IMG/VR virus record: IMGVR_UViG_2718218201_000002 | Location: 1-64,000 of that record | Strand: one strand, 5' to 3' | DNA from: a virus | Lineage: Duplodnaviria; Heunggongvirae; Uroviricota; Caudoviricetes | Length of the DNA: 64,000 nt | Part shown: positions 2,365-63,124 of the stretch, piece after piece | How the letters are laid out: each line of letters starts with the position of its first letter | Position numbering within the stretch: position 1 is the stretch's first letter | Translations under genes and position numbers: made by a program | The notes under the pieces: model-generated | The model's database searches: none | What the model saw: the letters and a program-made list of their open reading frames with translations, nothing else | What the model was told of the DNA's origin: nothing

Positions 2365-3023
2365 TATTTATTTACCTCTTTATTTTTATTTTGTATTAAT
2401 TCTGTTAATTCTTTGACTCGATGATATAATTCATTTTTATTAATATGTGTGGTTGTAATTAAGTAATCATAATCAAATGAATCAATATATGTTTCTGTTT
2501 CGTGTTGTAAGTCTTTTTCGTCAAAATCATCATTTAACTCTTGTATACGTTTAAGACGCACAACATCATCACACTCAACTTTTATGATTGTAAAATCATT
2601 CTGCTTAGCAAACTCGTATTCGTTTGGTTGTCGCAAATCAGTAATAATGTTGACAATAGTATAACTGCCATAGTCAAAACCGATGTTTCTTAGATTGTCG
2701 TTAATCTTTTTTGCAACAAAATCAACCCAAATGTTCTCATTTCTCTGTCTTAAATTTTGACCTAACCATTGAATAAGTTGTCTAGGCTTTTGTCCTTCAT
2801 TAAATTCATGAGGATATAATTGTCTAGCTGCCTGCTTCAGCGAGTCTCCAAAACTAAACGTTCTAACATATACGTTTTTATGAGGATTACTCAAAGACTT
2901 CACGATAGCACCAGCTACTGAGTCTTTACCTGAGCGCATCTTTCCAGTTAACGCAATGTTAATTTGTTTAATATTAATTGGTTTGTATAATGTAGGAATT
3001 GGGGTTTTAGTCATATTGTTCAC
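2364..3023 (-). CDS. P-loop deoxynucleoside monophosphate kinase-like (T4 gp1-like)
   Basis: N-terminal Walker A LTGKMRSGKDS resembles T4 dNMP kinase GVKRSGKDT. Its ATG overlaps the stop of the next gene. Confidence 0.5.
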   Translation of the reverse strand: MNNMTKTPIPTLYKPINIKQINIALTGKMRSGKDSVAGAIVKSLSNPHKNVYVRTFSFGDSLKQAARQLYPHEFNEGQKPRQLIQWLGQNLRQRNENIWVDFVAKKINDNLRNIGFDYGSYTIVNIITDLRQPNEYEFAKQNDFTIIKVECDDVVRLKRIQELNDDFDEKDLQHETETYIDSFDYDYLITTTHINKNELYHRVKELTELIQNKNKEVNK

Positions 3024-3027
3024 TCCA

Positions 3028-4047
3028 TTAATGATTCAAGAATTTTTTAGAGATTTCATAAGATTCAACATTGTTAAAGTCAAAATCTTTATCTCGTAAA
3101 TCCTTGTTATTAAGTGATAAAACATATCCATCACCTTTTGTTGAGAAAAAGTCATGGTTTTTAGTTTCAGTATTTAAACCATTTTCTACAATTGGATTGA
3201 ATGGGTCTGGATTAAAAACAACGTCATGTCCTAAATTCATTAACGCTTTGTTACCGTTGTATTGAATATATCTAATAACGTCTTCAGTTAATCCAATAGA
3301 ATCATATAATGAAGCTGTATATTCACACTCATTAAAGTAAAGCGCATCAAATAACTCCATCATTTCTTTCTTCAAACGCTTTTTAGTTTCTTCGTCGAAT
3401 GTATTGTAAATATCTTGAGCAGCAATACCCACTCCTACGCCATGAATACTTTCGTCAAGAATAATCTTGCGAATGATTTCACCTGAGGCAATCATCTTAC
3501 CTTGTCCTGAAAGTAATAATGGATAGTAGAACCCTGAGTAAAACAAGAATGATTCAAGAAATACTGACGCTACCATTGCCATATATAATTCTTCATCTGA
3601 TACTTCCTCTTTAAGTAATGCTCGATAATATTTAGCAATAAGTGTTGTTTTCTTATTTAAATACTTATTAGCTGGTACCCATTCTTCTAAGTAGTATTCT
3701 GTTTCCTTACGGTCGATTAAAGTTGTAAAAATATGAGTGTATGACTTGTGATGAATGTTTTCCATCATACCCATAAAAGAGAAAACTGATGACCATAGTG
3801 GGTGAGGATAATGGAATTGAATCAAAGGCATACCCTCTGCGGCTTGAGTGGTATCAAGTCCCGCAAGACCTGATAACACTTTAATATAAACCTCTTGTTC
3901 ATCTTTAGATAAACTTTTCCATGACGTAATATCTTTTGACGGCTTGAATTCATCTTCTGTCCACATTTGTGCTACATTTTGTTTCCAGAATGTTAATGCA
4001 ATGTGCTCCTTATCCCAATTAGTAGCTTTAGCTTGGATTGTTGTCAT
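3028..4047 (-). CDS. nrdF: ribonucleotide reductase class Ib beta subunit
   Basis: 339 aa with diiron/tyrosyl-radical R2 family signature regions (EDEFKPS..., ...EQEVYIKVLSGLAGLDT..., ...ESFLFYSGF..., ...DESIHG...). Confidence 0.85.
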   Translation of the reverse strand: MTTIQAKATNWDKEHIALTFWKQNVAQMWTEDEFKPSKDITSWKSLSKDEQEVYIKVLSGLAGLDTTQAAEGMPLIQFHYPHPLWSSVFSFMGMMENIHHKSYTHIFTTLIDRKETEYYLEEWVPANKYLNKKTTLIAKYYRALLKEEVSDEELYMAMVASVFLESFLFYSGFYYPLLLSGQGKMIASGEIIRKIILDESIHGVGVGIAAQDIYNTFDEETKKRLKKEMMELFDALYFNECEYTASLYDSIGLTEDVIRYIQYNGNKALMNLGHDVVFNPDPFNPIVENGLNTETKNHDFFSTKGDGYVLSLNNKDLRDKDFDFNNVESYEISKKFLNH

Positions 4048-4084
4048 TTATGTATTATCCTTTCTGTCTTTTATTATTTTTAAA

Positions 4085-4450
4085 CTACACGGCACAACTT
4101 GTACATTCAGCGATACTTAATAGTTTGTTACGTGTGTAGTAGAGTGATTTTAATCCTCTATCATGTGCATATGCATATAATCTAGCCAGCTTGTTAGTTT
4201 CAATTTCACTGTTTACAAATAAAATTGTTGACACGCCTTGGTCAATCCATTTTTGCGCAACAGCAGCTACATTGATAATGTGTTCGTTTGGAATTTCAAA
4301 TGCTGTTGGTGAGTAATACCACATTGTTTGTGCTGATAAATATGGCATTGGGTAAAATGTTTCTGAGTTACCGTATGTACGGCGCTCAACAATATCAACT
4401 ACTGGAGTTAATGCTGAGCTACAATTTGTTATGTAACTGATAGACTGTGT
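4085..4450 (-). CDS. nrdE: ribonucleotide reductase alpha subunit, exon 3 (C-terminal, ends ...ECTSCAV)
   Basis: The ORF 4085..4348 extends upstream in frame to TQSISYITNCSSALTPVVDIVERRTYGNSETFYPMPYL. This aligns with the APTGSISY...TYGNSKTYYPMPGL region and the C-terminal CxxC tail of NrdE. The base before the exon (minus strand) is G. Confidence 0.75.
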   Translation of the reverse strand, partial: TQSISYITNCSSALTPVVDIVERRTYGNSETFYPMPYLSAQTMWYYSPTAFEIPNEHIINVAAVAQKWIDQGVSTILFVNSEIETNKLARLYAYAHDRGLKSLYYTRNKLLSIAECTSCAV

Positions 4451-5701
4451 CCTTTGTGTTCGACTAAGGTCGTTAATCTTAGCCCGTTCTCTTATGAACT
4501 GCTTTACGTTTCCGTAAATGAGCAGACTATATCACACCTTGTGAGCCACTAAGGTCTTCACAAGGCATCTCCCACTTCCACTCACTTGAGTGTACTTCCC
4601 GCAACGGAATAGTCGTTGAACTTTCCTTTTAAAATATGATGTTAATAATTTATTATATGTAAAGATAAATAATCTCCACTATTAATTCTTTCTATTGTAT
4701 GTATCTTGAATCTTTTAATTAAATGAGGTAGTTTTTCTATCAATATTCTATGTGCTTGAGAACGAGTAATCGAATTTTTAATAGCAAAGTCTTTTATGTT
4801 TTCATAGTAACGAGTTTCATCATTTTCATACTTCACTTTGAACGGATTAAGATATTGAAGGTGAATTTTATTTTTTAAAGCTACTCTGCCTACTATTTCC
4901 CCATTAGGAATAGCTTCGACTTCTTCTAATTTCAATATGTTCAAAAAATCCCCTTTTAATAAATCTTTTTCTATTCTTGTCCTACCTGTTTTAAACGATT
5001 TTGCCATTTTTGCACAAGATTGATAATAGCTGAATAACTTCCCGTTCGGATAACTTACTTTAATAAATTTACTAGCAGGGCTAATTGCATTACCTGAATG
5101 GTAGGCGTGAAGCGTATTATATGATATTGTCGCCCACTCCAAATTCGTTGCTTCATTATTGTCTTTAATACTGTTTTTATGATTAACAACTGGTAAATTT
5201 AAAGGGTTAGGTACAAATGCTTCAGCGACAAGTCTATGCACTCGTGCCGTTGTTAAAGTTCCGTCCGTATTTGTTATGCCAACTGTTAAATATCCGTCTT
5301 TGTCTTTTCTGGGCTTTTTGAATATCCAACGATTATGTCCACCATGCCAACCTTTTACTCTCCCTAAGTTGCTGACCATATATCTCGGATTGTTTTTACA
5401 TGTTAACCAAAGCTCATTTAATTTTAATTTATTTCCTTTATGTATAATACTTTCTGCTTTTATTTCCATTAACATCACCTCTAAATTATGTAAATAACAC
5501 ATATTTTAAAAGGCTTAGCTGCGCTGATTCCCTATTATTTAGCACTTAGGATTTAACCATATGCCATCTAACTAATTTTTTCTGATTTCTCAACATTCAC
5601 GTCCGCTTCACAGCCCCGTTGTAGTTTAGTTAGCTTTAAGGCAATTCCCGCAATTCAAGAGATTTATCAATAGCATTAATTTACTATCGCCCTAATCAAT
5701 A
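4451..5701 (-). mobile_element. group I intron 2 of nrdE, carrying an HNH homing endonuclease ORF
   Basis: It interrupts nrdE between LSIAP and TQSIS. The flanks are GC-richer and structured. The 5' exon ends in U and the intron ends in G. Confidence 0.7.
4642..5502 (-). CDS. intron-encoded HNH homing endonuclease (I-HmuI-like, NUMOD4/HNH_3)
   Basis: YMVSNLGRV (NUMOD4), then HRLVAEAF and VNHKNSIKDNNEATNLEW (HNH). The true start is probably the internal MEIKAES. Confidence 0.75.
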   Translation of the reverse strand: MCYLHNLEVMLMEIKAESIIHKGNKLKLNELWLTCKNNPRYMVSNLGRVKGWHGGHNRWIFKKPRKDKDGYLTVGITNTDGTLTTARVHRLVAEAFVPNPLNLPVVNHKNSIKDNNEATNLEWATISYNTLHAYHSGNAISPASKFIKVSYPNGKLFSYYQSCAKMAKSFKTGRTRIEKDLLKGDFLNILKLEEVEAIPNGEIVGRVALKNKIHLQYLNPFKVKYENDETRYYENIKDFAIKNSITRSQAHRILIEKLPHLIKRFKIHTIERINSGDYLSLHIINY

Positions 5702-6316
5702 AGGTGCAATTGACAATCTATATCCGTTGTATAAACCATGCTTACCAACATCTTTTGCTAAACGTTGCCAATCTTCTTTTGTTGGAATGTAAATATCTTT
5801 GAAGATTTCTTTTACTTTATCAGTTACAGGCTTAACATCTTCTGTCACACGATTATTTTTATAGAAATACTTACCATACTCTTTTTCTTTAATTGCATAA
5901 TCAGAGGTTTCAAAACCATAGAATTTATCGTTACGTTCTTTAGCGATTCTCATTGATTCATCTAATGAATAGTAATCCATCATCATACAGTAGACGTTGA
6001 TAAGGTCTAATGATTCTTCTGAACCATATCTAATTTGATTCTTAGCACACATTGAATGGAATGACATTACACCAAGACCAACAGCACGAATATTTTTGTT
6101 TGCTTTATGAACAGTTGGTAAATGTTCGATACGTGAATTGTTAGCTACAAATGTTAAAGCTCTCATGCCTGTTCTGATTGATTCTTCAACAGCGTTTTCT
6201 TCAATTGATTTAACCATGTTTAATGAAGCTAAATTACAAATAATATCTTGCCCTAAGTTATCTTCTTCGTAATAATCTTTGATTTCTGACACGTTCATGT
6301 ACTGGAAAATTTCTGT
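5702..6316 (-). CDS. nrdE: ribonucleotide reductase alpha subunit, exon 2
   Basis: Begins TEIFQ... immediately after the exon-1 SNLC, reconstituting the SNLCTEI active-site motif. Ends ...GYRLSIAP, the APTxS motif region. Confidence 0.75.
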
Positions 6317-6640
6317 CAAATTCTTCACTTAGATTCGTTACTTCTAAGCAGCTTTTGTAAGCATCTGTATGTCACCATACACGCTGAGACTATATCACCA
6401 CCATATCCCACAATGGGACTTAGGTGCTCTTCCGTTTCGATTTAAAAGGGGCTTACGGTACTTATTACGTCTTGCCCTTACCACTTGGCTCTACACTTAC
6501 TCCAATAAAATATTAATTTTATCTAGTTTCAGTTAGTCGTTTGGCATTATTTTTAGCACTGGATTCTCACAATGTTCGTGTTTTCCCCAGTTTAGAAAGA
6601 GTTTTCACTGTAAACTTTCGTGTTACAGGGTGCACAATTT
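6317..6640 (-). mobile_element. group I intron 1 of nrdE (ORF-less, about 324 nt)
   Basis: Lies between the SNLC Cys codon (6641-6643) and TEIFQ (6316). It is GC-rich and structured, ends in G, and has no ORF. Confidence 0.65.
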
Positions 6641-7768
6641 ACACAAGTTAGACATTTTCACTTCGCCATGTTCGTTCAAAGCATGATTCTTATTGGCATT
6701 ATCTTTATACATAATATAAGGGTATCCAGATTGTAATTGTGTCTGAGCAATCATGTTTAGCATGTCACGTGCATTCATCTTTTTCTTAACAATATTCTCA
6801 TTCTCAACTAATTTGTCATACCACTCGGTAATATTAATATCATCAAGAATTACACCGTATTCTTTTTCAATTGAGTATGGTTCAAACATGTACAAGTCTT
6901 TGTTGTCCTTAGCTAAATCAAAGAATAGTGAAGGAACAATTAAACCGATAGACAATGTAGCTAATCTAGCGCCTTCGTCAGCATTAATCTTCTTACTGTT
7001 TAACAATTCAATTACGTCTGAATGGAAGATATTGAGATAAGCTGCTCCTGCCCCGTCTCTTGCACCCATTTGGTCGGCATAACCAACTTCACCTTCAATT
7101 AATTTGGCTACTGGGAACACACCTTTAGCTGCATTTTTAATACCTTTAATAGGTGCGCCACGCCCACGTAAACGAGTTAAGTTTACTGCTACGCCACCGG
7201 CAATCTTGCTCGCTTGTGACACCTGTCCACGAATAAAGTTAATTGAGTTTAATGTATCGTCCATAGTAAATAAGTAACATGAAGCTAATTCTCCACGTTG
7301 CTTACGTCCAGCGTTTAAATATGTGGGTGTAGCTGTTTGAACAGTTTGCAATGTGTGAGCTTTAATGTATTTCTTAGCCTGTTCAACATCACCATTTGCT
7401 AAATATAACGCTACAATAACGTTGTGTTGTTCAAAATTTTCAAGCCACAACATCTTACTACGAGTTTTTAATGCATATGTTTCATAGAATTTACTTGCAG
7501 CCATGAAACTTTGGAATTCAAAATTAAATGAGTAAGCATATTCAGTAAGCTCAATTAAATCTGATTCACTATATTGTTCGAACACGTCAATGTAATAGCC
7601 TTCTTCAACTAAATAGCGTAGTCGATTAATCTCGTTTGTAAATTTCTTTGTTTTTGAATCAACATGTTGGAGATAAAGTTCAATTGCTTCTTTATCCTTA
7701 TGAAGGCTTAATTGTCCCATTGAGTCTCTTCTCATAATTTCGTTATTCTTTTCAATCCACTTGCTCAT
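6641..7768 (-). CDS. nrdE: ribonucleotide reductase alpha subunit, exon 1 (N-terminal)
   Basis: 376 codons. Contains ...GVAVNLTRLRGRGAPIKG... and ends exactly at the SNLC active-site Cys. The ORF then reads through into intron sequence (KLCTL*). Confidence 0.8.
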
Positions 7769-10040: not shown

Positions 10041-10646
10041 TTAATTTATTTCTTTAGGTCTGTAATACACTGCTACAACATAACAGATAAACAGTAGTGC
10101 GACATTAACACTTTCCGTAATTACAGTATGCGGACTAGCACCTGTTAATAATAATAACAAAATTAAGTCTAACAATCCTACTGCAAATAAGCCGTATAAA
10201 AGTGGATTAGTTCCTTCTGAAGTTTTGACTTTATAAAAATGTTTTAGTTGTGACAAGTACGCCAGTATAATTGCTAATGACGCAAGTGCTTGAGAATGGC
10301 TCACTCCTACATTGTTTGTAATGAATGGCACCACCACTAAATAAGTTAATATAAATAGTACATATTTCGTTTTATTATTTTTATTGTGTACATGATTAAA
10401 GTAAAGGAAAAACATACAAGCAAACGAAGTGTTTACAATCTGTCCCATATACATGTACCACTCTGCTTCCCCAGTTTCAATAATATTTCGCAAGGTAATT
10501 GATGTAGCGGTTGCGATATAAAACCAAAAGGAAGTTGATACACCTCTATTAGTCTTATATTTTAAAGTAGTGTAAATTTGCGGTAAGTAGCCAATAATAA
10601 AAATTAAAACTACTAAAATATTTAACATGTGTAAAAAGTTTTGCAT
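10041..10646 (-). CDS. polytopic membrane protein, PnuC/PQ-loop-like transporter (tentative)
   Basis: 201 aa with 6-7 predicted TM helices. The GYLPQIYTTLK motif resembles a PQ-loop. Confidence 0.35.
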   Translation of the reverse strand: MQNFLHMLNILVVLIFIIGYLPQIYTTLKYKTNRGVSTSFWFYIATATSITLRNIIETGEAEWYMYMGQIVNTSFACMFFLYFNHVHNKNNKTKYVLFILTYLVVVPFITNNVGVSHSQALASLAIILAYLSQLKHFYKVKTSEGTNPLLYGLFAVGLLDLILLLLLTGASPHTVITESVNVALLFICYVVAVYYRPKEIN

Positions 10647-11428
10647 TATTTTCCACCCACGATAACACCTTGAGAGTTAATTTCTAAAGGATTCTCGCCT
10701 TTCCATTTATCAATCTTTTGTTTTTCAATGAGTTCTGGCGTCAAAGAATCATTAAGAATCTTGTTTGCTTTTGCTTCACCCTCAGCTTCAATACGTCGCT
10801 TTTCAGCATTAGCACTAGCAATTTGCTTGTCTGTTTTTGCTCTTTCTAATTCTTGGTTAGCCTTAACTCGTTCGTCAATTGATGCTTGTGTTGCTTTATC
10901 AGCTTCTGGACTTGACACTGCTATGTCCTCAATAATAAATCCTTCTTTTTCTAATCGTTTTTGAAGAGCTTCAATAGTATCTTTTTTAATTTCTCCTGCT
11001 TTAACACCAAATGTCTCAATTACCGAATACTTTGATACTGATTGACGTAAGCCATCTTGAACTCTTGTACGTAAATAGCCATTCTCTAATTGTTCAATAT
11101 CAGCATTTCCAAACTTATTAAAAATAGGAACAACTTTTGTTGCATCTACATGATAGTTTACACTAATACTCATTGTTAAATTCTTACCATCTGACGTCGC
11201 TACATTCAATTTGTCGTACTCTTTTGTCTGTGTACGTACTGGATAGTCCGTAGTACGGGTCAGTGGTGAAACTAAATGCCAACCAGCGTTGAGTGTCTTA
11301 TCTTTTACTCCGGCTGTACTGTACATTACGGCTACGTTCCCTTGTGGTACTTTCTCAATACAAGCAGTTAATAAAAGCAATGCTGCTACTGTCAATACTC
11401 CAATTGCTGCAACTAATCCTTTTGACAT
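10646..11428 (-). CDS. SPFH/band-7 (prohibitin/HflC-like) membrane-anchored protein
   Basis: N-terminal TM helix, SPFH core (PQGNVAVMYS...), then a long A/E/K-rich coiled-coil tail. Confidence 0.55.
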   Translation of the reverse strand: MSKGLVAAIGVLTVAALLLLTACIEKVPQGNVAVMYSTAGVKDKTLNAGWHLVSPLTRTTDYPVRTQTKEYDKLNVATSDGKNLTMSISVNYHVDATKVVPIFNKFGNADIEQLENGYLRTRVQDGLRQSVSKYSVIETFGVKAGEIKKDTIEALQKRLEKEGFIIEDIAVSSPEADKATQASIDERVKANQELERAKTDKQIASANAEKRRIEAEGEAKANKILNDSLTPELIEKQKIDKWKGENPLEINSQGVIVGGK

Positions 11429-11739
11429 TAAATATTCCCTCCATTTTTAATCTCATCAAGTGTTTGATTTACTTGTTCTAATTCATTTTCAAGTCTACGT
11501 ATTTCGTCCATAGGATAGAACATACCAACTTTTGTTCTAATTTGTTGTTCTAAAATACGTTGACGTGTTTTTAACTCTGCTTCCATTAACTTTTGTTCTT
11601 TCTTACTCTCTTTAGCCTTGTTTAATATTTCATGTTTTTTCTCTAAATGACTGAACACATTCATCAAATATGAAAGTAATAAATATAAAACAACAGCAAT
11701 AATAATTATGATTATAGCTCCTAAGATAAATAGCTTCAT
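11428..11739 (-). CDS. small TM + coiled-coil protein
   Basis: 103 aa. Hydrophobic N-terminus followed by a charged helix. Likely partner of the SPFH protein. Confidence 0.35.
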   Translation of the reverse strand: MKLFILGAIIIIIIAVVLYLLLSYLMNVFSHLEKKHEILNKAKESKKEQKLMEAELKTRQRILEQQIRTKVGMFYPMDEIRRLENELEQVNQTLDEIKNGGNI

Positions 11740-12296
11740 TTTAATTTCAACAACTCTTTTAACTCTGGTTTGTCTTTTAGAATCTCATGCAACAAAGTAA
11801 TAAAACTTAACCGATATACATCTTCTCCTGAATACATATAAAGTGCCCAATCTTTAGCTAATGGTTTAATATCATGCCATTTCAAGTACTTATGTAATTC
11901 GTCAATAACAGCGGATAAGTCCTCTACTTCGTATAATTCTTCGTAGTCTTCTTCTTTTAATTGTATTGAGTAGATAGTATACCCTTCTATTTCAGAATTT
12001 CGAAATGGTGTTACCTCATATCCTGCGCTATAAAACACTTCTAACTCTTCACCACTTAGTTCTTTAAAAGTCTTAAATATTGGTATTTTCTTTAAAACTC
12101 TTTTTTCGTATTCTGTTACAATACTGTTAAACTCTCTTATGGTGTCCATAAATTCTCTTTGTTTTTCTCTTTTTTTTTGTAATTCGCCATTTAATTCGTC
12201 TCTTGAATAAATCAATCCTTCAAATCCAGCTAAACCATTCATTATATCTACACCTTTCATTAATTTATTTTTGTAAATTGTCAACAACTTTACCAA
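11736..12296 (-). CDS. hypothetical protein
   Basis: 186-aa ORF. Confidence 0.35.
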   Translation of the reverse strand: MVKLLTIYKNKLMKGVDIMNGLAGFEGLIYSRDELNGELQKKREKQREFMDTIREFNSIVTEYEKRVLKKIPIFKTFKELSGEELEVFYSAGYEVTPFRNSEIEGYTIYSIQLKEEDYEELYEVEDLSAVIDELHKYLKWHDIKPLAKDWALYMYSGEDVYRLSFITLLHEILKDKPELKELLKLK

Positions 12297-13146
12297 TAAA
12301 ACTCTCTAATACTTTTACATTAATTGAATTTCCTGCTTGTTTATATAATTGCGCATCTGCTTTAATTAGCTCACCATTCTTGTATGTATCAGCTAGTGCT
12401 TTTCGTGCCTTATAAAACTGCTCATCTGTAAAACCTTGAAGTCTCCAATACTCCAACGGAGTTAAACCTCTAATATGTATATTGCTATCAATCAAATGGT
12501 TAATATTTTTGGAATCAATTAACTTAGAATAATCTCCTGTATCAAATAATACAAAGTTATTAGTTCTAGCTGCCTTCCCGCCTTTAGCAACTAAACAATT
12601 AGCTAAGTCGTTGTGTCTTAGTACAGTCATTCTACCTTTAAAATTAGGGTTGCTGTTAGCTAAATTCAAAGCTGACTTCTTAGAAAGTGTGTATGACTCA
12701 CTTACTTTTGACTCTAAATAATCACCAATTGTACGTTGTTGCTGCTTCTTAATATTTGGGAACTCAAATTGCTTTCCCAACATACTTACAACGAAAACTC
12801 GTGGGCGGCTTTGAGCTTCTCCAACATCACGTGGGCTAATAATCTTGTAATTTGATTCATAACCCAACTTGCTCAACTCACTTAAGTAAGCGTCAAAATT
12901 GTGTTTATGATTCTTATTTAGTACAGATTTGACATTCTCCCAGATAACAATCTTAGGTTTACATTCTGATACAATTCTAACTGTTTCCCACATTAAAGAT
13001 GATTTTGTTCCACTGTTTTTATCTCCTCCTTCTTGCTTACCAGCAATACTAAAGGACTGACATGGTGAGCCGTGGAACAATAAATCAACATCTTTAATTG
13101 TTGTGCCATCTACCAATCTTACGTCGGATAAATTTTTACTTTTATC
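12265..13146 (-). CDS. C5 cytosine DNA methyltransferase body (motifs IV-X), lacking motif I and an ATG in this orientation
   Basis: Carries GSPCQSFS (PCQ, motif IV), ENVKSV (ENV, motif VI), QSRPRVFVVS (motif VIII) and GNSINVKV (motif X). The upstream in-frame extension NLSDVRLVDG is the GDI region. Motif I is encoded on the opposite strand at 13188..13352. Confidence 0.7.
   Translation of the reverse strand, partial: DKSKNLSDVRLVDGTTIKDVDLLFHGSPCQSFSIAGKQEGGDKNSGTKSSLMWETVRIVSECKPKIVIWENVKSVLNKNHKHNFDAYLSELSKLGYESNYKIISPRDVGEAQSRPRVFVVSMLGKQFEFPNIKKQQQRTIGDYLESKVSESYTLSKKSALNLANSNPNFKGRMTVLRHNDLANCLVAKGGKAARTNNFVLFDTGDYSKLIDSKNINHLIDSNIHIRGLTPLEYWRLQGFTDEQFYKARKALADTYKNGELIKADAQLYKQAGNSINVKVLESFIGKVVDNLQK
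13127..13145. repeat. left inverted repeat bounding the invertible MTase 5' segment
   Basis: gataaatttttacttttat matches the reverse complement of 13336..13354 at 17 of 19 positions. Confidence 0.5.
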
Positions 13147-13187
13147 ACAATCACCTTAAACTTACATAAGAACAAGGAGACAGAACA

Positions 13188-13352
13188 ATGAAAAAGATTA
13201 GAATGTTAAGTTTGTTTTCTGGTATTGGTGCACCAGAAACAGCGATTAAAAATTTAGGATATGACCTTGAGCTCTTAAATTTTTGTGAGATAGATAAGTA
13301 TGCTTCTACCTCATACGAAGCAATTCACAAAGAAAATAAAAGTAAAATTTAA
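13188..13352 (+). CDS. C5-MTase N-terminal fragment (motif I FxGxG and EIDKYA..Y), 54 aa with its own RBS
   Basis: MKKIRMLSLFSGIGAPETAIKNLGYDLELLNFCEIDKYASTSYEAIHKENKSKI*. RBS AAGGAGA lies 8 nt upstream. It is inverted relative to the gene body. Confidence 0.65.
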   Translation: MKKIRMLSLFSGIGAPETAIKNLGYDLELLNFCEIDKYASTSYEAIHKENKSKI

Positions 13353-13354
13353 TC
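13336..13354. repeat. right inverted repeat bounding the invertible MTase 5' segment
   Basis: ataaaagtaaaatttaatc. It covers the last codons and the stop of the N-terminal fragment. Confidence 0.5.
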
Positions 13355-13525
13355 TTCATCAAACCATGCTTCAAGTATGTTTAATGTGCTCGTGTCTATG
13401 TATAAGTTCAAATCATGGTAAGAATAATATCCAACAACATCTACATCGTCGTATCCTACTTCATCGCCATTCCAGTCTGAATGCCATCGCAACTTATTGA
13501 AATCAAACGTTTCAAAATCGAACAT
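13352..13525 (-). CDS. small hypothetical acidic protein (57 aa)
   Basis: MFDFETFDFNKLRWHSDWNG.... Below the 60-aa track cutoff. Its stop is convergent with the MTase N-fragment stop. Confidence 0.3.
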
Positions 13526-13539
13526 GACAACATCACCTT

Positions 13540-13652
13540 ATTCAATTAAATTATTTTTGTTCTTTAGCTAACTCAATGCGTTCAATTGCAACATCGTAAT
13601 ATTCTTCATACCTTCTAAACAGTCTTCATTATAAATTTTGTTAAGTTCAATC
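13540..13652 (-). pseudogene. remnant of an N6A/N4C DNA methyltransferase (start and C-terminus only; core deleted)
   Basis: The ATG overlaps the Ndt stop (ATGA). It reads MIELNKIYNEDCLEGMKNI, a canonical N6_N4 MTase N-terminus, and then after a frame change YDVAIERIELAKEQK*, a typical C-terminus. Confidence 0.45.
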
Positions 13653-14271
13653 ATTTTGAAGCACCTAGCTTTTCTAATTCCTCTAGCACTTTCTCCCAAG
13701 AAATGAATCCTACGCCATTAGTGAGTTCCAATACAGCGCCGAACACAAACTGATTAGTGCTAAATTCAGCTCTATCAGGGTCATTATAGGGCTTGCCATG
13801 CCCTTGTCTAATATCTGAGCAGTAAATTAAAACGGGTTTGTTTACAACAGTATAGGCTTCTAAAACATCGTCTTGTGTTTTAGTATCTAACTTTCTAAAA
13901 TCTACAGAATCGTATTTATCTATAATTTTCTGTGCTTGATATTTCATACCAAGAATGATTCCAAGTTCTGTAATTGTTCCTAAGCCCTCGTTTAAGATAT
14001 CTAACACATAAATATCAGATGCTTTTATTGCTTTAAAATCATTGCGTAAAATACGTTCAGCAAGTCCTTCTTGTATTGCGTTTTCTTTATCATTAATTGA
14101 TTCGTCTTTGTGTGGTGAATAAGGTGTCACTCCTACAATACCTTCTACTAAGTTGTGTTGTTTTTCACGATAATCAACCATAGCTTCATTTAGTATATGA
14201 CCACCCATATAAACTACTTTGTCTTTAATAAGATTTGCCATCATTCTCCCCCTAAAATAAGTCTTTATCAA
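13651..14271 (-). CDS. nucleoside 2-deoxyribosyltransferase-like protein
   Basis: VVYMGGHIL...DIYVLDILNEGLGTITELGIILG matches the Ndt/Rossmann-like fold signature. Confidence 0.55.
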   Translation of the reverse strand: MIKTYFRGRMMANLIKDKVVYMGGHILNEAMVDYREKQHNLVEGIVGVTPYSPHKDESINDKENAIQEGLAERILRNDFKAIKASDIYVLDILNEGLGTITELGIILGMKYQAQKIIDKYDSVDFRKLDTKTQDDVLEAYTVVNKPVLIYCSDIRQGHGKPYNDPDRAEFSTNQFVFGAVLELTNGVGFISWEKVLEELEKLGASK

Positions 14272-14492
14272 AACATTAAGTCATAAATTTCATTCTTATC
14301 AAATAATTCAAAGTCATCTTTATGTAGCCACTCTATGTCGCTTAACAAATAATTTAACTTGTCATATCTTTTATGTTCGATAATTTTTGCTAACTCCTCA
14401 ACTATATCTTCAAGAGTATTTGGTCTAATATATGTATACTTTGTCATATTTTCACCTTTTGTATAATAATTTATTTTTAATAACCTTTCCAT
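14268..14492 (-). CDS. hypothetical small protein
   Basis: 74 aa, overlaps its neighbours. Confidence 0.35.
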   Translation of the reverse strand: MERLLKINYYTKGENMTKYTYIRPNTLEDIVEELAKIIEHKRYDKLNYLLSDIEWLHKDDFELFDKNEIYDLMF

Positions 14493-14791
14493 GTAAGCTG
14501 TTCGTAACTAATATCACCATTCTTAAACTTGATGAAACCATATCTTAAAAAATCATGAATACATACTTCAAAGATAGTCGCATCGTTTTTCTTGCTAAAG
14601 TACCTTTTTTCAATTTTAATATCTCTGGGCTTAATTACTTCTAGTTTAGTCATTAAGTCTTTCAGCTCATTTTCTGGTAACTTCCATTTATCCTCTGGAA
14701 GTCTAGCAAACAATTTCTTGGAGTCATTAAGTTCAATAATAAACTTTTTAATGTCTAAATACTCATGAAATGGTATCACATTACTCAACAT
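14477..14791 (-). CDS. hypothetical small protein
   Basis: 104 aa. Confidence 0.35.
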   Translation of the reverse strand: MLSNVIPFHEYLDIKKFIIELNDSKKLFARLPEDKWKLPENELKDLMTKLEVIKPRDIKIEKRYFSKKNDATIFEVCIHDFLRYGFIKFKNGDISYEQLTWKGY

Positions 14792-15113
14792 CTTTCACTC
14801 CATCTCTAATCTCATCTAAAGACGATTCGAGTGTGTTAATTTTATCCAACAAATACTCATTTTCATTCCTTAATTGCTCGCTTTCGCTTACTGTATCACT
14901 AATCACTTTTTCGGCAGCAAGTCTTGACTCAATTAACTGAGAAAGAACAATTCCTGTGTCATCAGAGTCTAATGATTTATCTAACAAATTATTACCGCTA
15001 TCGTTCATTACAATATTCTTGAGAGTATAATCTTCCTCGTCTTTTTTCAATAATACATAAAAGCTAGGCATTGTAATTTTGTAAACATTTTTGTCTTCCA
15101 TATGTATATCCAC
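14781..15113 (-). CDS. hypothetical acidic protein
   Basis: 110 aa. Confidence 0.35.
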   Translation of the reverse strand: MDIHMEDKNVYKITMPSFYVLLKKDEEDYTLKNIVMNDSGNNLLDKSLDSDDTGIVLSQLIESRLAAEKVISDTVSESEQLRNENEYLLDKINTLESSLDEIRDGVKDVE

Positions 15114-15126
15114 CTTTTAAATTTTA

Positions 15127-15375
15127 TTATTCATAACCAATGAATTGTAAATTAGAATCATTTAAAATGATATTCACAATATCAATATCGTATTCATCAA
15201 TTTCTGGCTCTTTTGTAAGTAAAATATTTTTCACATTAATTTGTTTGGCTATATTAATAATAAAGGTAATCCAAGTGTCACCCAAATCACTTTTCGTGAA
15301 TCTAAAACTCCCTGTAACCTTACCATCAGCGCTTTTACATTTATAGCTCTTGTCGTAAATAATCTCCTCAATCAC
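15127..15375 (-). CDS. hypothetical small protein
   Basis: 82 aa. Confidence 0.3.
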   Translation of the reverse strand: MIEEIIYDKSYKCKSADGKVTGSFRFTKSDLGDTWITFIINIAKQINVKNILLTKEPEIDEYDIDIVNIILNDSNLQFIGYE

Positions 15376-15534
15376 AAAGTTCCCTCCTACATTTTTTGTA
15401 GTAACTCATCACATTTTAAACCAATATGCTCAAGAGTGCTTTCAAGATTCTCTCCACTAAACAATGCTTCTTCACATTTGTCAAAAAACTCTGTTAACGT
15501 CACTGCGATTTCTCTATGTAATAGATAAAGATTC

Positions 15535-15906
15535 TTAGTCTTTTCCGTATTCATCACTTGCCTCCTTGTTCCATTTTGAATTGTCTTTCAGTAATTTTTC
15601 CTCGTGTAATAAATCGTTCAGGCATTTAAGCTCGCCGTCATCATAGAAAAATACTTTTGCTAAGTACCTTCCAAAGTTATCTGATTTATAGGTTTGTACA
15701 TAAATATCCATTTCAAAGACTTTTTCAATAACAAATTGTTTAGCTTCAGCATATAACGGCTGCCCACGTTCTGGTGTGTCAACGTCTAACAAGCGAAGTC
15801 TTTTGTCTGCATAAGTTTTGAAGCCGTAATCTAGTTGTACATCGATAGTGTCACCATCAACCACATTGACACACTTACCTTTAAAAATATACAATTTATC
15901 TTTCAT
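15535..15906 (-). CDS. thermonuclease (SNase)-like nuclease
   Basis: VVDGDTIDV...RLLDVDTPE matches the staphylococcal nuclease fold signature. Confidence 0.6.
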   Translation of the reverse strand: MKDKLYIFKGKCVNVVDGDTIDVQLDYGFKTYADKRLRLLDVDTPERGQPLYAEAKQFVIEKVFEMDIYVQTYKSDNFGRYLAKVFFYDDGELKCLNDLLHEEKLLKDNSKWNKEASDEYGKD

Positions 15907-15934
15907 TTCATTTACCTTTCAATTAATTTATTTA

Positions 15935-17260
15935 CTAATGATAAGACACATCATAAACTGTTTTATCTTCTCTAATTTGTTTAAAAGTTGGGAAACGTAA
16001 ACTTAAATTACCGTCTTTATCACTAGACTCTTCAAAATAGCCAACTTCAACAATTTTGTTGATAATTAGTTCTGGCTCTTGCCAATACTTCATTCTCTGT
16101 TTTTCTGTAAATCCTGAGCCTACTTGTAATTCATTTCCTTTATACTCAACAACAATACTTCCTAACTTACCACCACGTGTGTGTTCAACTAGCTGTAACA
16201 CTCTCAAATCAGCGCTATAAAAAGTCTTAAATTTTAGCAGCGTTTTTGTTCGTGTAGTTGTATAGTAAGCATTAATATCATCTAGCATAGTTCCCTCGTA
16301 TCCTAATTCTTCCATTTTCTTTTGAACACGTTGAATTTCTGCTAGGTCATTGCCTTGGTATAAAGATTTAACATTTGTAAAATACTTTCGACCTTGTTTA
16401 TTTCCATCTGTATATGTATTAAGAATTTCAGTATATTCGGCAACTTGTTCACGTCGTTTAGTAAATTTAAGTTTTGACTTACCGTCCTTGAATTCTTCTA
16501 ATGGCATACAATCAAACATAATATACTGTATATCTGACTTAATACCATCTTTTCTCAATCGACTTGAAGTAACTTTGAACAATTTATCACTACTTAAGTC
16601 ATTGTCATTAAATGCTAAAAGTTCGCCATCAAACATCATTGGCTGTTTGTGTTCCTCATAAAACGCTTCAAGAGCTTTTTCAAATGTAATTAAACCTTTG
16701 TATTCTTTACCGCTTCGTGCGAATAGTTTTACACCATCTTTATCTACTAAAGCTACACAACGATGTCCATCAATCTTTACACTTTGCGAATAAATTGCGT
16801 TCGCTTTCAACTCACCTTCAAACTTACTACCTTTACGCACATCAAATTTAAAGATGAAGTTTTTACCAAAGACTTTATTTAGTGTAATTTTACTTATGCC
16901 TGCTGGGTAATCTTTAATAACGATATTCTTAACAAGATTGGCAATATTTTCTCCATACTCATTTTTAAATGCTTGAATGTATCCTCTAACTAAAGCTATA
17001 TCTCTATCTTTACCAGAATTATTTTTTTTCAAGTAATCCATTAATACTTGTAAATTTGGATTATCGACCTCTACTGGATTAACTGGTTTGGCAATCTTTT
17101 TATTAGATAAGCCCGTTGTGATTAAGTCGTCGTATAAAAACTTTAAAACATTTTGCAATAACTCATCTTTCTTGCCACTTCTCAAAATACTTTCTTTTTC
17201 AATTCTGCTAGAAGTTTTTTTCAAACTTTCAAGCACTTCGTACAACTTCTGAATTTCCAT
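15935..17260 (-). CDS. ATP-dependent DNA (or RNA) ligase
   Basis: Motif I KIDGHR, motif IV-like EGTML and motif V LLKFK. 441 aa. Confidence 0.6.
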   Translation of the reverse strand: MEIQKLYEVLESLKKTSSRIEKESILRSGKKDELLQNVLKFLYDDLITTGLSNKKIAKPVNPVEVDNPNLQVLMDYLKKNNSGKDRDIALVRGYIQAFKNEYGENIANLVKNIVIKDYPAGISKITLNKVFGKNFIFKFDVRKGSKFEGELKANAIYSQSVKIDGHRCVALVDKDGVKLFARSGKEYKGLITFEKALEAFYEEHKQPMMFDGELLAFNDNDLSSDKLFKVTSSRLRKDGIKSDIQYIMFDCMPLEEFKDGKSKLKFTKRREQVAEYTEILNTYTDGNKQGRKYFTNVKSLYQGNDLAEIQRVQKKMEELGYEGTMLDDINAYYTTTRTKTLLKFKTFYSADLRVLQLVEHTRGGKLGSIVVEYKGNELQVGSGFTEKQRMKYWQEPELIINKIVEVGYFEESSDKDGNLSLRFPTFKQIREDKTVYDVSYH

Positions 17261-27118: not shown

Positions 27119-28471
27119 TTAATGCTTAATCTTTTGTGCCTTACATTGTGCTTTTATTACTTTTTCAATATCCAGCATTGAAAGGTTTCTTGCAGCATTT
27201 AAATCAGCGTTTGTTTTATGTCCACAATTCACACATTCAAACTTCTCTTGACTTTTTCGACTCTCTTTATCAATATAGCCGCATTTGTTGCATCTTTGAG
27301 AGGTAAATTTAGGAGAAACTTTTTTTACCTCAATACCTTTTGTTTTTGCTTTATTCTCAATCTTTTCTTGTAAGTTAGAATAGCTCCATCGCTTTAAAAA
27401 TGTGTCAGTTTTTGAGATTCCTGATAAATCTTCCATTTGAATAATTGTACAACGATTCTTTAGTGCTGTGTCGACAATAAATTTTGCATAACGATGATTA
27501 GTTAATTCTTTAAAATTATTAACTTTTGCTCTAAGTTTTTCCAATGGTATCAGTTTTGTACTTCTGCCGTGTCCACTTCTGTTACTAGAATGATACTTTA
27601 ATTGATTTCTCATACTGTTTCTTCTAGCTTCGATTCCGTTTCTGAACTGTTCGATTTCGCCACCATTTATATATTCTGAAACTGGAGAATCACTAACTGC
27701 CATATATGCCGCTTTTGAAATTCCTAAATCAACACCTAAAATTTTATTCGGAATTAAATCTTTGTCGTCTTTTACTTTAAGTCTATAAGCAACGATTAAA
27801 TAGTTATTTAACTTACTCCCTCTCTTTTTAACGTGAATATGACTATCTCTTAAATCATATTCACCACTTGTCAATCTGTCTAATATAACTTTTTCCTGTC
27901 CTTTAGAGCTAAGTAAAAACTTAATTCTTGTTCCCTTTCTACCTTTTCTATCAAGTTCTTTTGCTTTCTCAGGACTTAGCAAAGTCAACTCAGCATAATA
28001 TTTTCCACTTTCTTTTGTGATAAAAATCATTCTTGAGCGAATAGGAATAGGTTGATTTCTTTTGAAAGTAATGTTGCTTGCACTCCCATTTAATATTTTT
28101 TTCATGTTATTTTTTACAACTTTTTCTCCCTCACGAGCCATCGAATCAAAATGTTCTCTTAAAAAACTACCGTTGTTTAGCTCTTTATCTTCTTTAGCTT
28201 GTTCCATATTATAAGCTGAAAACGTTTTACCATATCTCGTTTTAAAATATTTATCATATGTCCCTTTACCATGAACGTTTTCATATTCTAATTTCTCAAT
28301 TACATTCATATAAGTTCTAGTAGCCGCTTTATTTTTAACTCTGAAACAAATGTAATCTAAATCTCTTAACACTTTACCAGCAAAGTCCCAATCTCCTTCA
28401 TCAACACCTACTGGTTTAATTAGCTTAATCCCGTACGATTGCACGACATATTTTTCTTTTTCACCTTCCAC
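27119..28471 (-). CDS. tnpB: TnpB (IS200/IS605 OrfB / IS1341-like) RuvC-type RNA-guided nuclease family protein
   Basis: 450 aa. RuvC-I ILGVDLGISKAAY, RuvC-II IQMEDLSG, zinc finger CNKCGY...CVNCGH, RuvC-III NADLNAARN. GTG start after a GAGGTGA RBS. No tnpA is present. Confidence 0.8.
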   Translation of the reverse strand: MEGEKEKYVVQSYGIKLIKPVGVDEGDWDFAGKVLRDLDYICFRVKNKAATRTYMNVIEKLEYENVHGKGTYDKYFKTRYGKTFSAYNMEQAKEDKELNNGSFLREHFDSMAREGEKVVKNNMKKILNGSASNITFKRNQPIPIRSRMIFITKESGKYYAELTLLSPEKAKELDRKGRKGTRIKFLLSSKGQEKVILDRLTSGEYDLRDSHIHVKKRGSKLNNYLIVAYRLKVKDDKDLIPNKILGVDLGISKAAYMAVSDSPVSEYINGGEIEQFRNGIEARRNSMRNQLKYHSSNRSGHGRSTKLIPLEKLRAKVNNFKELTNHRYAKFIVDTALKNRCTIIQMEDLSGISKTDTFLKRWSYSNLQEKIENKAKTKGIEVKKVSPKFTSQRCNKCGYIDKESRKSQEKFECVNCGHKTNADLNAARNLSMLDIEKVIKAQCKAQKIKH

Positions 28472-53129: not shown

Positions 53130-54143
53130 TTAGGGCTTATTCACTATTACTACTCCATATAATTCTTGCAAAGCATCTGTATACTGTTCACTAAACCTAG
53201 CAACCGTATAAGATAAGGAATTTTTAAAAATATGCCTATTATATCTTCTCATTACTTTTTCTATTTTTATGAAATCTAATTTTCCTTTTTCTGATAGCAA
53301 GTACATATAATGTAATATACCAGAATCAATGACGTTAGTGACGCTTGAGATATAATTATTAGTTAAATCTTGTAACACCCTTATTCGTCTGTATACTACT
53401 TGCTTATCAATTTGTTCTGTTGTGGTATCAGTAAACTCGACATTTCTAAAAATATGGTTTCCACTTATCACTTCTTTTGCAGGTGTTCTAGAACTAGGGT
53501 CACCATTCTTGGTATAATAGATTGTGGCTTTATACGAGCTCTCCATGTCGTCTAACAATAGTTCAGGCACTTCGACATAGCGTTCAATTGTTTCACTTTT
53601 TTTGTCATTTAAAAGTTTTAATTTATAATATTGCTCATTATTAGCAACATGCGTTGGATTATTTCTGGCTTCTTTAACATCTTCAATGGTTAAATTGATT
53701 AACTCACTATAAGCTGTTCCAGAAATACCATGAAAAATTGCTGAAATTAATGCTCTATCACTAGCATTATAGAAACTACTAACATGCAATAAGAATTTTT
53801 CGTACGTGAAAAATTTTTGTTTATGTTTGTACACAAACTTATCAATCTTGTCGTACGTAAACATTCTAAATAAGTTAATGTTAGACAGCCTATCCCCTCT
53901 TTCAATTGCATAGTCAGTATATTTTTTAGCAAATGTTAAATAAGTTAATAAAGTGTTCTTACTGGACGAATAGATGTTGTAAAGCAAAATTTCTATTTCC
54001 GTAGTAGTAAAATTATACAAATCAGTATCGAACTGTTGCTCTACTTTACTACTATTGTTGAACAACGCAGTATATACTCTTACTTCATTTTCACGCTCTA
54101 AAGATTGCAAGAACTGCTTTTTATACAAGCTATTATAAAACAT
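53130..54143 (-). CDS. hypothetical protein
   Basis: 337 aa. Its ATG overlaps the stop of the upstream ParB-like gene. Confidence 0.45.
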   Translation of the reverse strand: MFYNSLYKKQFLQSLERENEVRVYTALFNNSSKVEQQFDTDLYNFTTTEIEILLYNIYSSSKNTLLTYLTFAKKYTDYAIERGDRLSNINLFRMFTYDKIDKFVYKHKQKFFTYEKFLLHVSSFYNASDRALISAIFHGISGTAYSELINLTIEDVKEARNNPTHVANNEQYYKLKLLNDKKSETIERYVEVPELLLDDMESSYKATIYYTKNGDPSSRTPAKEVISGNHIFRNVEFTDTTTEQIDKQVVYRRIRVLQDLTNNYISSVTNVIDSGILHYMYLLSEKGKLDFIKIEKVMRRYNRHIFKNSLSYTVARFSEQYTDALQELYGVVIVNKP

Positions 54144-55456
54144 TACTTCACTCTCGCTTTCTCAAACAAGATTTTAATATTTTTGATTGCTTCGCTTTGT
54201 ACTTTCTTAATACTTTGATTTGCCATTTCAATTCTGAAGTTGACCTCGTTGTTTTTTAGATAATCAACTGCTTTATGAGCTTCATCTATAAATTCTTTAA
54301 TCGTTAAACCACTTTCGACATAATATTTAAGAAAGGCATAGATGTAAATACGAGTATTAAAAGTATTATTAATTTCCCGTAAGTCTATATAAGCTAAAAT
54401 TACTTCTGAAACTTCTTGAACAGTGCTTACTTGGTCTCTTCTAGTCTCAACTTTAAATAATTCATCAATGTACTTACTTAATTCAGAAAATGCTATTGAA
54501 CCCCCACCAGCTGTACTATTTGTGGTTTTAATAACATCTTCAAAAATAGCATCTTTATCTTTTATTGCCTTAACAACTTTGGCGCCTCCAGATTCTTGTT
54601 GTAGCTCTGCTACTCTATTTTTTGACCACGGTGTCGCTTTACTATGTTGTGCTTGCCATTTGATTGCTTCAGCTGTAGTAAAGTTACTAAAAACTACATT
54701 GAATTCAAAATTGATAGTTGGGTTTTCACGATAAGCGTTTTGCGCTGCTAATACACGGTGAAAACCATCGATAACATCTAATCTTGTTCCCTCAGTAATC
54801 GTTAATGTATAGCTCTCAGGGTCATAAATTAATTCATCACCATTCACGCTCGTCATAGGAGCGGCGTTAAAGAAAAGTGTACTTTCTTTTAAACCATCTT
54901 CTAAAAGCAACTTTTCCATTTCTCGAATATTCTTTTGATTCAACGTTGGCTTTCTAATAATTTTTCCAATTCGTTTTTCCAATTTTGATTCCCGTTGAAT
55001 ATCAAAGTTATAATTGATTACTTTAGAATCAACAAACTCTGCAATTTGCTTAACACTTATTTTTGTACTGTATACATTGTTTACTTTAACAACTGGTTGA
55101 AAATCATATGGGAAAGTAATTTTATCTTGTTCTAAGAATGCATGAAAATCAAATTGTTTTGCCTCATTAATTTCCCCAGCTGTTAGATACTCTTGTATAC
55201 CGTCTTCGTACCCCAATACTTTAAAACTTTCCAAAATGAATAACGAGATTAGGCGAATATCAGTGGTGTCAAAAAAGTTATCATCTAGTTCACGATTCAA
55301 GAAAGAATGTGTGATGCCGCTAGGAACTCTATATTTTCTTTCCATTTCATTAGCAATTTTATTAATCAATTTACTGGTATCTTGATTTTTTAGAAGTGTG
55401 ATAACTTCTCTAAAAGCCTTGAATTTATTATTCATGCTTTCCCTCCTTTTTATCAT
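54143..55456 (-). CDS. ParB/Srx-superfamily (DGxHR motif, DndB-like) nuclease-domain protein
   Basis: 437 aa with DVIDGFHRVLAAQ in the central region. Confidence 0.4.
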   Translation of the reverse strand: MIKRRESMNNKFKAFREVITLLKNQDTSKLINKIANEMERKYRVPSGITHSFLNRELDDNFFDTTDIRLISLFILESFKVLGYEDGIQEYLTAGEINEAKQFDFHAFLEQDKITFPYDFQPVVKVNNVYSTKISVKQIAEFVDSKVINYNFDIQRESKLEKRIGKIIRKPTLNQKNIREMEKLLLEDGLKESTLFFNAAPMTSVNGDELIYDPESYTLTITEGTRLDVIDGFHRVLAAQNAYRENPTINFEFNVVFSNFTTAEAIKWQAQHSKATPWSKNRVAELQQESGGAKVVKAIKDKDAIFEDVIKTTNSTAGGGSIAFSELSKYIDELFKVETRRDQVSTVQEVSEVILAYIDLREINNTFNTRIYIYAFLKYYVESGLTIKEFIDEAHKAVDYLKNNEVNFRIEMANQSIKKVQSEAIKNIKILFEKARVK

Positions 55457-62527: not shown

Positions 62528-63124
62528 TTAAAAACTCATAGTAAAAATGTGTGCATTTTTTTGATTAAGCCCGATATATCTATATTCAGCATTTAACAAA
62601 AGGTCATGCCCTTTTGCCTCAGCGTCAAAGTATATTGTTAATTCTTCAACATAAGGCGGTTCAATGCTCGTTGCCTTTAATTCGGGCTCTAAAATGTTTT
62701 CAAAATACCATAATCCGAGCGCTTTTTTATAGTTATCAGAATAAAATTTTGAGCTTAAAGTGACTGAGTAAAAACATGCGTTGATTCTTTCGTTTTCGTC
62801 ATCAAACATGTCTTTGATTTCTTTTGCAATTTCAACGTCAATGCCAGTGTGGTTATTTACATAACTTACACGATTAGCCATTGTTTGCAATTCCTCGATT
62901 GAATGAAACTCACTAATGTTAAACAAATCGCTTTCATAATCAGAAATAAACCATTCATTCCCCTTGCTAGCAATTGCGTCAATATATGCGCTCATTGCTT
63001 CAAATTCAGTTAAAGCGTTAAACCATTTACCAACTAAATTACCGGCGTTGTATTCAGCTAAATCGCTGATGAAAAGATTAAGCTGAATGTTGTTCTGTGT
63101 GTTGTTTGTATTTTGATTTTCCAT
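62528..63124 (-). CDS. ardA: ArdA-family anti-restriction protein (DNA mimic)
   Basis: LFISDLAEYNAGNLVGKWF...ISDYESDLFNISEFHSIEEL aligns with Tn916 ArdA (VYIANLGKYNEGELVGAWF...IHDYELPFTVDEYTSIGEL). Acidic. Confidence 0.55.
   Translation of the reverse strand: MENQNTNNTQNNIQLNLFISDLAEYNAGNLVGKWFNALTEFEAMSAYIDAIASKGNEWFISDYESDLFNISEFHSIEELQTMANRVSYVNNHTGIDVEIAKEIKDMFDDENERINACFYSVTLSSKFYSDNYKKALGLWYFENILEPELKATSIEPPYVEELTIYFDAEAKGHDLLLNAEYRYIGLNQKNAHIFTMSF

Follow-up and report, generated by a model that had tools for sequence, protein, structure and literature searches.

Is the short stretch of DNA between the gene for nucleoside 2-deoxyribosyltransferase (Ndt) and the next conserved ORF intergenic DNA, a small ORF, or the remnant of a larger gene? 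We addressed this question in a window of 64,000 nt, which is the whole stretch of DNA that was analyzed. According to the list of open reading frames, all genes in this part of the window are encoded on the minus strand. The stretch opens with an ATG at 13654-13652, which overlaps the TGA stop codon of Ndt at 13653-13651 (ATGA), as stated in the original prediction for this locus. The opening from this ATG is MIELNKIYNEDCLEGMK. In frame A, which starts with the ATG, the stretch reads MIELNKIYNEDCLEGMKNITMLQLNALS and ends with a TAG at 13570-13568; the +1 frame reads ..EEYYDVAIERIELAKEQK and ends with a TAA at 13553-13551. A deletion stub of a DNA methyltransferase gene had been predicted at 13540-13652, with a length of about 110 bp. 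Such a stub is indeed present at this site, but its true limits, from the original ATG to the TAA of the original frame, are 13551..13654 (minus strand), corresponding to 104 nt.

Upstream of the stub, the Ndt gene (13651..14241, minus strand) codes for 196 aa. Its assignment is based on NCBI records of the identical protein and on related phages; the match to the Pfam family Nuc_deoxyrib_tr was faint. Downstream, a spacer (13526..13550, minus strand) harbors the ribosome-binding site of the next gene (AAGGTGA, 13539-13533). The spacer is retained from the intact locus, and alignments revealed that it is common to the related loci L005, L023, and L030. It is followed by an ORF of 58 aa (13349..13525, minus strand), which is conserved and forms the downstream boundary of the methyltransferase slot. 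The identical 58-aa protein is encoded on 186 contigs of S. pseudintermedius, and variation in the ORF is found almost exclusively at third codon positions. No family in Pfam or PHROG matched this protein. The stop codon of the 58-aa ORF overlaps one arm of the neighboring inverted repeat. No RNA family, promoter excess, or terminator was found for the stub: the only match in the Rfam E-value scan of 12000-14500 was a chance snoRNA inside Ndt, and the promoter and terminator scan of the stub region gave nothing above expectation.

The N-terminal peptide of the stub was used for a tblastn search of 2.3 Gb of phage DNA and matched the starts of methyltransferases with E=2e-4. The matching proteins are annotated DNA methyltransferases of Lactococcus and Staphylococcus phages. 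When intact methyltransferases of Staphylococcus phages were in turn compared with the 64-kb window, the N-terminus of the stub was the only significant match (E=4e-5). The C-terminal peptide alone matched a distant homolog with E=2.2, which is not significant by itself, and the case therefore rested on closer relatives. A degenerate pattern for EEYYDVAIERI had no match in viral contigs.

Closer relatives with an intact gene are L005, a 120.6-kb viral contig from a scan of IMG/VR with the Ndt protein, and L023, the S. pseudintermedius assembly GCA_027794155.1, which encodes the protein P0144. The proteins of L005 are recorded from S. delphini. In L005, Ndt is followed by an ORF of 241 aa (4618-5343), the 58/59-aa ORF, and a C5-methyltransferase gene. 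L023 has an L005-like gene order with a 241-aa gene at 3001-3726 (P0144), and both genes show the same ATGA overlap with Ndt as the stub. P0144 starts with MVELNKIYNEDCLEGMKRIPDKSVDMILCDLPYG and ends with ..GSGTTAIACMNTGRNYIGYELDKEYYDVAIERIELAKE. The 5' remnant of the stub is identical to the start of the intact gene at 48/50 nt for L005 and at 47/50 nt for L017, and the 3' remnant is identical to the end of the intact L023 gene at 53/54 nt. The single difference in the 3' remnant changes the TAA of L023 to CAA, which makes the old frame two codons longer. On the protein level, all residues of EYYDVAIERIELAKE (15/15) are identical between the stub and the C-terminus of P0144.

P0144 matched the Pfam family PF01555 (N6_N4_Mtase) with E=2.2e-33 over residues 24-233, and P0132, the product of a second allele described below, did so with E=1e-35. 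The 37-aa concatenated stub peptides had no match in Pfam, since the model starts only at residue 24. No NCBIfam equivalog cut-off was reached for the family of the lost enzyme. Both ends of the stub are collinear, have equal orientation, and are homologous to the ends of one member of the PF01555 family. The assignment of the two peptides to the N-terminus and the C-terminal helix of one N6_N4 methyltransferase family, as originally predicted, was thus confirmed, and an intact gene between Ndt and the next gene was indeed found in related prophages. We also considered that the stub was copied from a paralog elsewhere in the window and rejected this, as no intact copy is present in the 64-kb window.

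The breakpoint was located by an explicit left-register and right-register scan against L005. The 5' register is kept to window position 13605, and the 3' register is kept from 13609/13606 onward. The 5' remnant (13605..13654, minus strand) comprises the first 50 nt of the methyltransferase gene and encodes MIELNKIYNEDCLEGM plus 2 nt of the next codon. The 3' remnant (13551..13604, minus strand) comprises the last 17 codons (EYYDVAIERIELAKEQK) and the TAA, and is shifted by +1 relative to the 5' remnant. The missing part has a length of 628 nt (about 209 codons). Since 628 mod 3 = 1, the remnants are out of frame and frame A stops after 28 codons. The residual 28-codon ORF made by this frameshift (13568..13654, minus strand) has missense changes in other strains. 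It may be translated by coupling to Ndt, and nothing points to a function for it.

The finest placement of the breakpoint is ATGAAGAATATT at 13609-13598 (13598..13609 on the minus strand). This junction reads as the N-terminal M-K-N-I in one frame and as the C-terminal (D)-E-E-Y-Y in the other. A change of frame had been expected after 19 codons. The change itself is present, but the certain 5' part is restricted to 50 nt (16 2/3 codons); the figure of 19 codons is too long because "N-I" lies inside the ambiguous junction. Similarly, about 200 codons including a DPPY motif had been proposed to be excised. The core is indeed lost, but the nearest allele has DLPY at this site. This catalytic motif IV is absent from 13654-13551 and falls within the deleted 628 nt. 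The AdoMet-binding motif I (FxGxG; GSGTT in the family) is also absent from the stub. The 3' remnant begins about 25 codons after the GSGTT of P0144, and the whole middle of the protein was lost together with motif IV and motif I. Lacking every catalytic and binding element, the stub cannot be an enzyme. We concluded that the 104-nt stretch is almost certainly a pseudogene of a beta-class N6-adenine/N4-cytosine DNA methyltransferase with an internal deletion of about 628 nt.

The number of bases shared at the junction depends on the allele used for comparison. Only AA is shared with L005, and ATGAA is shared with the allele of L017, which has GATGAAGAATATTAC at its C-terminal site. In L071, a metagenomic member of the family, the N-terminal site is ATGAAGAATATTCC, with ATGAAGAATATT as the natural codons for M-K-N-I. 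The N-terminal pattern M-K-N-I-P had no match in viral contigs and one match in metagenome contigs, a family member of 260 aa. The ancestral gene may have contained a direct repeat of 9-12 nt. The junction fits a microhomology-mediated deletion, with a microhomology that could be anywhere from 2 to 12 nt, depending on the sequence of the ancestor.

From 10349 to 16525 (6.2 kb), the window and S. pseudintermedius CP016072.1 have 100% identity. The identical junction was present in 14 fetched loci, which are 13 other assemblies and CP016072.1 (L019), the latter probably being the genome of the window itself. These loci stem from independent NCBI and Logan assemblies, and two of them, CP016072.1 and CP066712.1, are complete chromosomes. 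The location of the prophage in S. pseudintermedius chromosomes was found via the exact 58-aa protein. The exact 28-nt junction had no match in viral contigs or in genome contigs, the latter being species-representative genomes, which apparently do not carry this prophage. No relative of Ndt was confirmed in the genome contigs.

In the old frames, point changes among the 15 stub copies would correspond to E3G, I7N, D11G, and E14V or would create stop codons; a deletion of 1 nt is found as well. The deletion was inherited by most sampled copies of the S. pseudintermedius prophage, which accumulate point changes. The nucleotide diversity (pi) is 0.043 for the stub (104 nt), 0.044 for the whole Ndt gene, and 0.019 for the 58-aa ORF. 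Pi of Ndt is 0.034, 0.013, and 0.087 at codon positions 1, 2, and 3, respectively, with the stub in between. These values suggest relaxed constraint on the stub, with the limitation that it comprises only 104 nt and that its pi is not clearly above that of the whole Ndt gene.

The gene content of the element (DNA polymerase III alpha, ligase, ribonucleotide reductase, and Ndt) and a match of about 75% between its nrdEF region and SPbeta-like phages of S. epidermidis suggest that it is a large SPbeta-like prophage. No description of this locus was found in the literature. The prophage SpST71A is a different one, with 45 kb (PMC7029219).

For 21 related loci, we compared what is present in the slot that separates Ndt from the 58-aa ORF. 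The intact 241-aa allele is present in L005 and L023. An allele of 267 aa with a very different core is intact as P0132 (WMZ75471.1); in L017 (2176-2975), it has a frameshift after codon 74. A third, TDPPY-type allele is found in L030 (2058-2737) and is frameshifted in a C run within the DPPY codons. The break in L030 lies in a run of six C, and the same type of truncated product, with 33 aa (P0066), is encoded on other contigs; the run may be prone to slippage, or it may result from a read error. Besides the window-type stub, a second deletion stub is present in L029 and L031 (about 1905-2750), with ATGATTGAACT joined to AGACAAAGAATATTAC.. and M-I-E-L joined to D-K-E-Y-Y-.. on the protein level. 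This second deletion removed 660 nt in frame, at the microhomology TGAACT, and its product is MIEL followed by DKEYYDVAIERIELAKEQK and a stop, which is a different peptide of 23 aa. The second stub keeps C-terminal bases that are lost in the window-type stub; it is therefore independent and cannot derive from it. This shows that internal deletions recur at this slot. The second stub is located directly downstream of an inserted gene for a 250-aa HNH_3 endonuclease, and the insert carries a duplicate of the 3' end of Ndt. In L029, the HNH gene seems to be disrupted, as no gene was called there.

The ends and flanks of the three alleles are 75-100% identical, and the cores 20-50% (nt), which fits a replacement of alleles by recombination in the conserved ends. 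Ndt is also mosaic, and its aa identity between these prophages is 94-100%. Only a small minority of the S. pseudintermedius copies appears to carry an intact allele. This estimate, from contig counts of named proteins, is rough, since the stub is unannotated and cannot be counted directly. The view of the slot as a hotspot of methyltransferase loss and variation, which had been part of the prediction, holds as judged from the comparison of loci: intact genes of 241 and 267 aa, two frameshifted genes, two stubs, and the HNH insertion point to repeated independent inactivations and to allele replacement.

Could the remnant have been kept for a function, with the 28-codon ORF acting as a leader or spacer for the 58-aa ORF or encoding a small peptide? 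The ATGA overlap and the ORF are kept in 15/15 copies with no premature stop in frame A, and the start codon and the final 17-19 codons survived in each of the two independent deletions. Nevertheless, several copies carry the radical missense changes listed above, the second deletion allele gives a different peptide, and no RNA family or regulatory signal was found. Selection on the signals of the flanking genes is a simpler explanation for the retention of the ends, and we regard a functional remnant as very improbable. An original "empty" site, into which the methyltransferase core was inserted in the relatives, would be in line with the three very different cores between conserved ends, which resemble cassette exchange. 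However, an exchange of cassettes by recombination in the conserved ends does not imply that the stub is the ancestral state. Its halves correspond to coding sequence, the first 50 nt and the last 54 nt of a gene, in different frames, and there is no reason for an empty site to encode coding ends, so that this explanation is extremely unlikely. The chance that the junction is a sequencing or assembly artefact, such as a collapsed repeat or a mis-join, is negligible, as 14 fetched loci from independent assemblies, two of them complete chromosomes, share this junction.

A different issue is whether the same junction arose several times independently, with one direct repeat as a hotspot. Some stub haplotypes differ at four sites of the 5' remnant by synonymous-type changes, and these sites are also polymorphic among the intact alleles, which could mean repeated deletion at this site. 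An ancestral repeat of 9-12 nt (ATGAAGAATATT), if present, would favor slippage, and both halves of the repeat exist in members of the family. On the other hand, hardly any variation is found among the copies in the 3' remnant and the spacer behind it, where all changes are singletons, and Ndt itself is mosaic. The mosaicism of Ndt together with the uniform 3' side is explained by recombination upstream of one inherited junction, and this is how we read the four-site pattern. Repeated origin of the junction thus appears unlikely.

Under the preferred explanation, a deletion pseudogene with one inherited junction, the ancestral gene belonged to a large SPbeta-like prophage in the Staphylococcus intermedius group, with Ndt on one side and the 58-aa ORF on the other. 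It lost about 628 nt in one internal deletion event, by which codon 17 was fused to the codon that is 17th from the 3' end. As judged by the signature of the junction, the most likely cause is slippage during replication or illegitimate recombination, in either case between short direct repeats within the gene. The catalytic motif IV and the AdoMet-binding motif I were lost together with the target-recognition region, and the frame was shifted. The remnant probably has no function of its own, and the methyltransferase was presumably dispensable or costly in this host. Presumably only gene-internal deletions persist, because these leave the stop codon of Ndt and the ribosome-binding site of the 58-aa ORF (AAGGTGA) untouched. 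One possibility is that the gene was lost due to the cost of methylation in hosts with methylation-dependent restriction. The window also encodes an ArdA anti-restriction protein, and the phage thus has other ways around host restriction.

The lost enzyme resembles known beta-class methyltransferases. P0144 is similar to M.RsrI (PDB 1EG2), M.MboIIA (1G60), DpnA (5HEK), and CcrM (6PBD) with E=1e-16 to 1e-20 and has the order of motifs of the beta class, in which motif IV is close to the N-terminus and motif I follows close to the C-terminus. Compared to these enzymes, the stub keeps only the sequence before motif IV and after motif I. Methyltransferases of lytic Staphylococcus phages of the Twortvirinae, namely "rsrIM" of vB_SepM_BE09 (271 aa) and ORF130 of vB_SauM_VL10 (287 aa), share the N-terminus MELNKIYNEDCLEGM.. 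and the C-terminal ELDEEYY..RIE and have 53% identity to the L005 gene. Unlike the gene studied here, they are not located after Ndt. The BE09 gene adjoins a second methyltransferase gene, and the VL10 gene lies 3' of the genes for Rep and a DNA helicase and 5' of the genes for a second methyltransferase and an exonuclease. In the nearest lytic relative, vB_SpsM-DH2, Ndt is followed by a membrane protein, and a methyltransferase-like match is found about 66 kb away.

Truncated members of this family were also present among public proteins. Dozens of ORFs of 30-77 aa from unrelated public assemblies (P0001-P0085) start identically to MIELNKIYNEDCLEGMK. Several of them are in-frame fusions of start and end, such as P0001 and P0002, in which DLPYG is joined to TTAIAC..EYY... 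The query for this search was 44 aa long and included 7 family-consensus residues (PDG, FELD), and only short proteins were returned. The breakpoints of these copies are different from that of the stub. PHROGs contains families made of N-terminal or C-terminal methyltransferase halves. Internal deletion or truncation seems to be common in this methyltransferase family, as far as can be judged from a search that gave short proteins only.

The neighboring C5-cytosine methyltransferase gene had been described as switched off. Its 5' segment is inverted in the window, but the gene is not lost, as it is found in the ON form elsewhere. The invertible segment of 190 bp lies between two inverted-repeat arms at 13127-13145 and 13336-13354 (13127..13354 in total), as identified by the inverted repeat and by comparison of ON and OFF forms. 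It carries the ribosome-binding site and codons 1-54, which are on the plus strand in the window (13188-13352), corresponding to the OFF state. The 3' part of the gene (12265..13116, minus strand; 283 codons from motif IV onwards) is intact and separated from the inverted 5' end. The arms have 19 nt with 89% identity in the window and contain a perfect 17-mer (TAAATTTTTACTTTTAT) in L024, and the repeat core is kept around the inverted segment in the more distant prophage L011.

The ON form encodes a full-length protein of 342 aa (P0105, PF00145) in other S. pseudintermedius assemblies. The OFF form is present in the window, L005, L011, and L013-L022, and the ON form, with 340-352 aa, in L023-L031 and for P0103, P0105, and P0114. 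ON and OFF sequences are identical apart from the inversion, and three different stub haplotypes were each found with both orientations. Recombination between prophages could also account for such mixing of orientation and haplotype. The 3' part is intact in 11/11 OFF copies of S. pseudintermedius, with a pN/pS of 0.13; only the S. delphini copy has an internal stop in this part. These values point to purifying selection on the 3' part and argue against loss of the gene. The C5-methyltransferase gene is probably a repeatedly flipping and reversible switch rather than a dead gene. No recombinase gene was found within 10 kb of the switch. Two tyrosine-recombinase genes are located in the window about 40 kb from the switch; they encode tyrosine-recombinase-like proteins (MrpR-like; Phage_integrase) at 53130-54143 and 55693-56790 (minus strand). 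In IMG/VR, the contig L005 was the sole close relative found in a search with the C5-methyltransferase.

Intragenic inversion switches (invertons) and phase-variable methyltransferases have been reviewed (PMC11868660; PMC11741434). The C5-methyltransferase gene resembles invertons in that short inverted repeats surround its 5' end, both orientations occur, and the OFF copies are intact. It differs in that the inversion is known here from the comparison between strains, in a methyltransferase of a Staphylococcus prophage. We found no report in the literature of this inversion switch in a Staphylococcus prophage methyltransferase. If it is reversible, the inversion would make this methyltransferase of a staphylococcal prophage phase-variable.

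By itself, the stub is of little importance: it is an ordinary pseudogene that arose by deletion in a gene of a known enzyme family. It should be annotated as a pseudogene and not as intergenic DNA or a small ORF; the context of the slot and the C5 inversion are of more interest. The stub is useful as a marker: most of the fetched S. pseudintermedius copies have lost this N6/N4 methyltransferase, and one of at least three different alleles is retained in a few copies. Lysogens with the stub and with different alleles are therefore expected to differ in their methylomes. In S. aureus mPhi11, pamA is a prophage-encoded orphan adenine methyltransferase gene, and it shows that host gene expression and virulence can change when such a gene is acquired or lost (PMC12435837). 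While pamA is active, the gene studied here is destroyed; the likeness is that of a prophage-borne methyltransferase in a staphylococcal lysogen. In view of the effect of pamA on virulence, the allele of a strain may be worth recording.

As a tentative and rather speculative view, a widespread SPbeta-like prophage of S. pseudintermedius may carry a variable methylation module with two parts, of which the stub is the "empty" state. Such a module would combine turnover of the N6/N4 slot with the C5 inversion switch. If this is true, recombination at the slot would lead to different specificities, to loss, and possibly to refilling from incoming phages, and the C5-methyltransferase would be turned ON and OFF reversibly by the 190-bp inversion that carries the ribosome-binding site and 54 codons. 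As a result, DNA methylation would differ between lysogens and might also be phase-variable, with effects on the evasion of restriction by the phage and on host gene expression.

Other genes of the prophage, all on the minus strand, encode a DndB-like protein (54143-55456; below the Pfam cut-off), ArdA (62528-63124), and a TnpB-like protein with a Cas12f1-like TNB domain (27119-28471). The gene for the large subunit of ribonucleotide reductase appears to be split in the window (about 3028-7768, minus strand) and in L032 (15347-20087). The pieces in L032 comprise 381, 210, and 87 aa, with a NUMOD4/HNH_3 endonuclease gene in between, and this suggests the presence of introns or inteins with a homing endonuclease.
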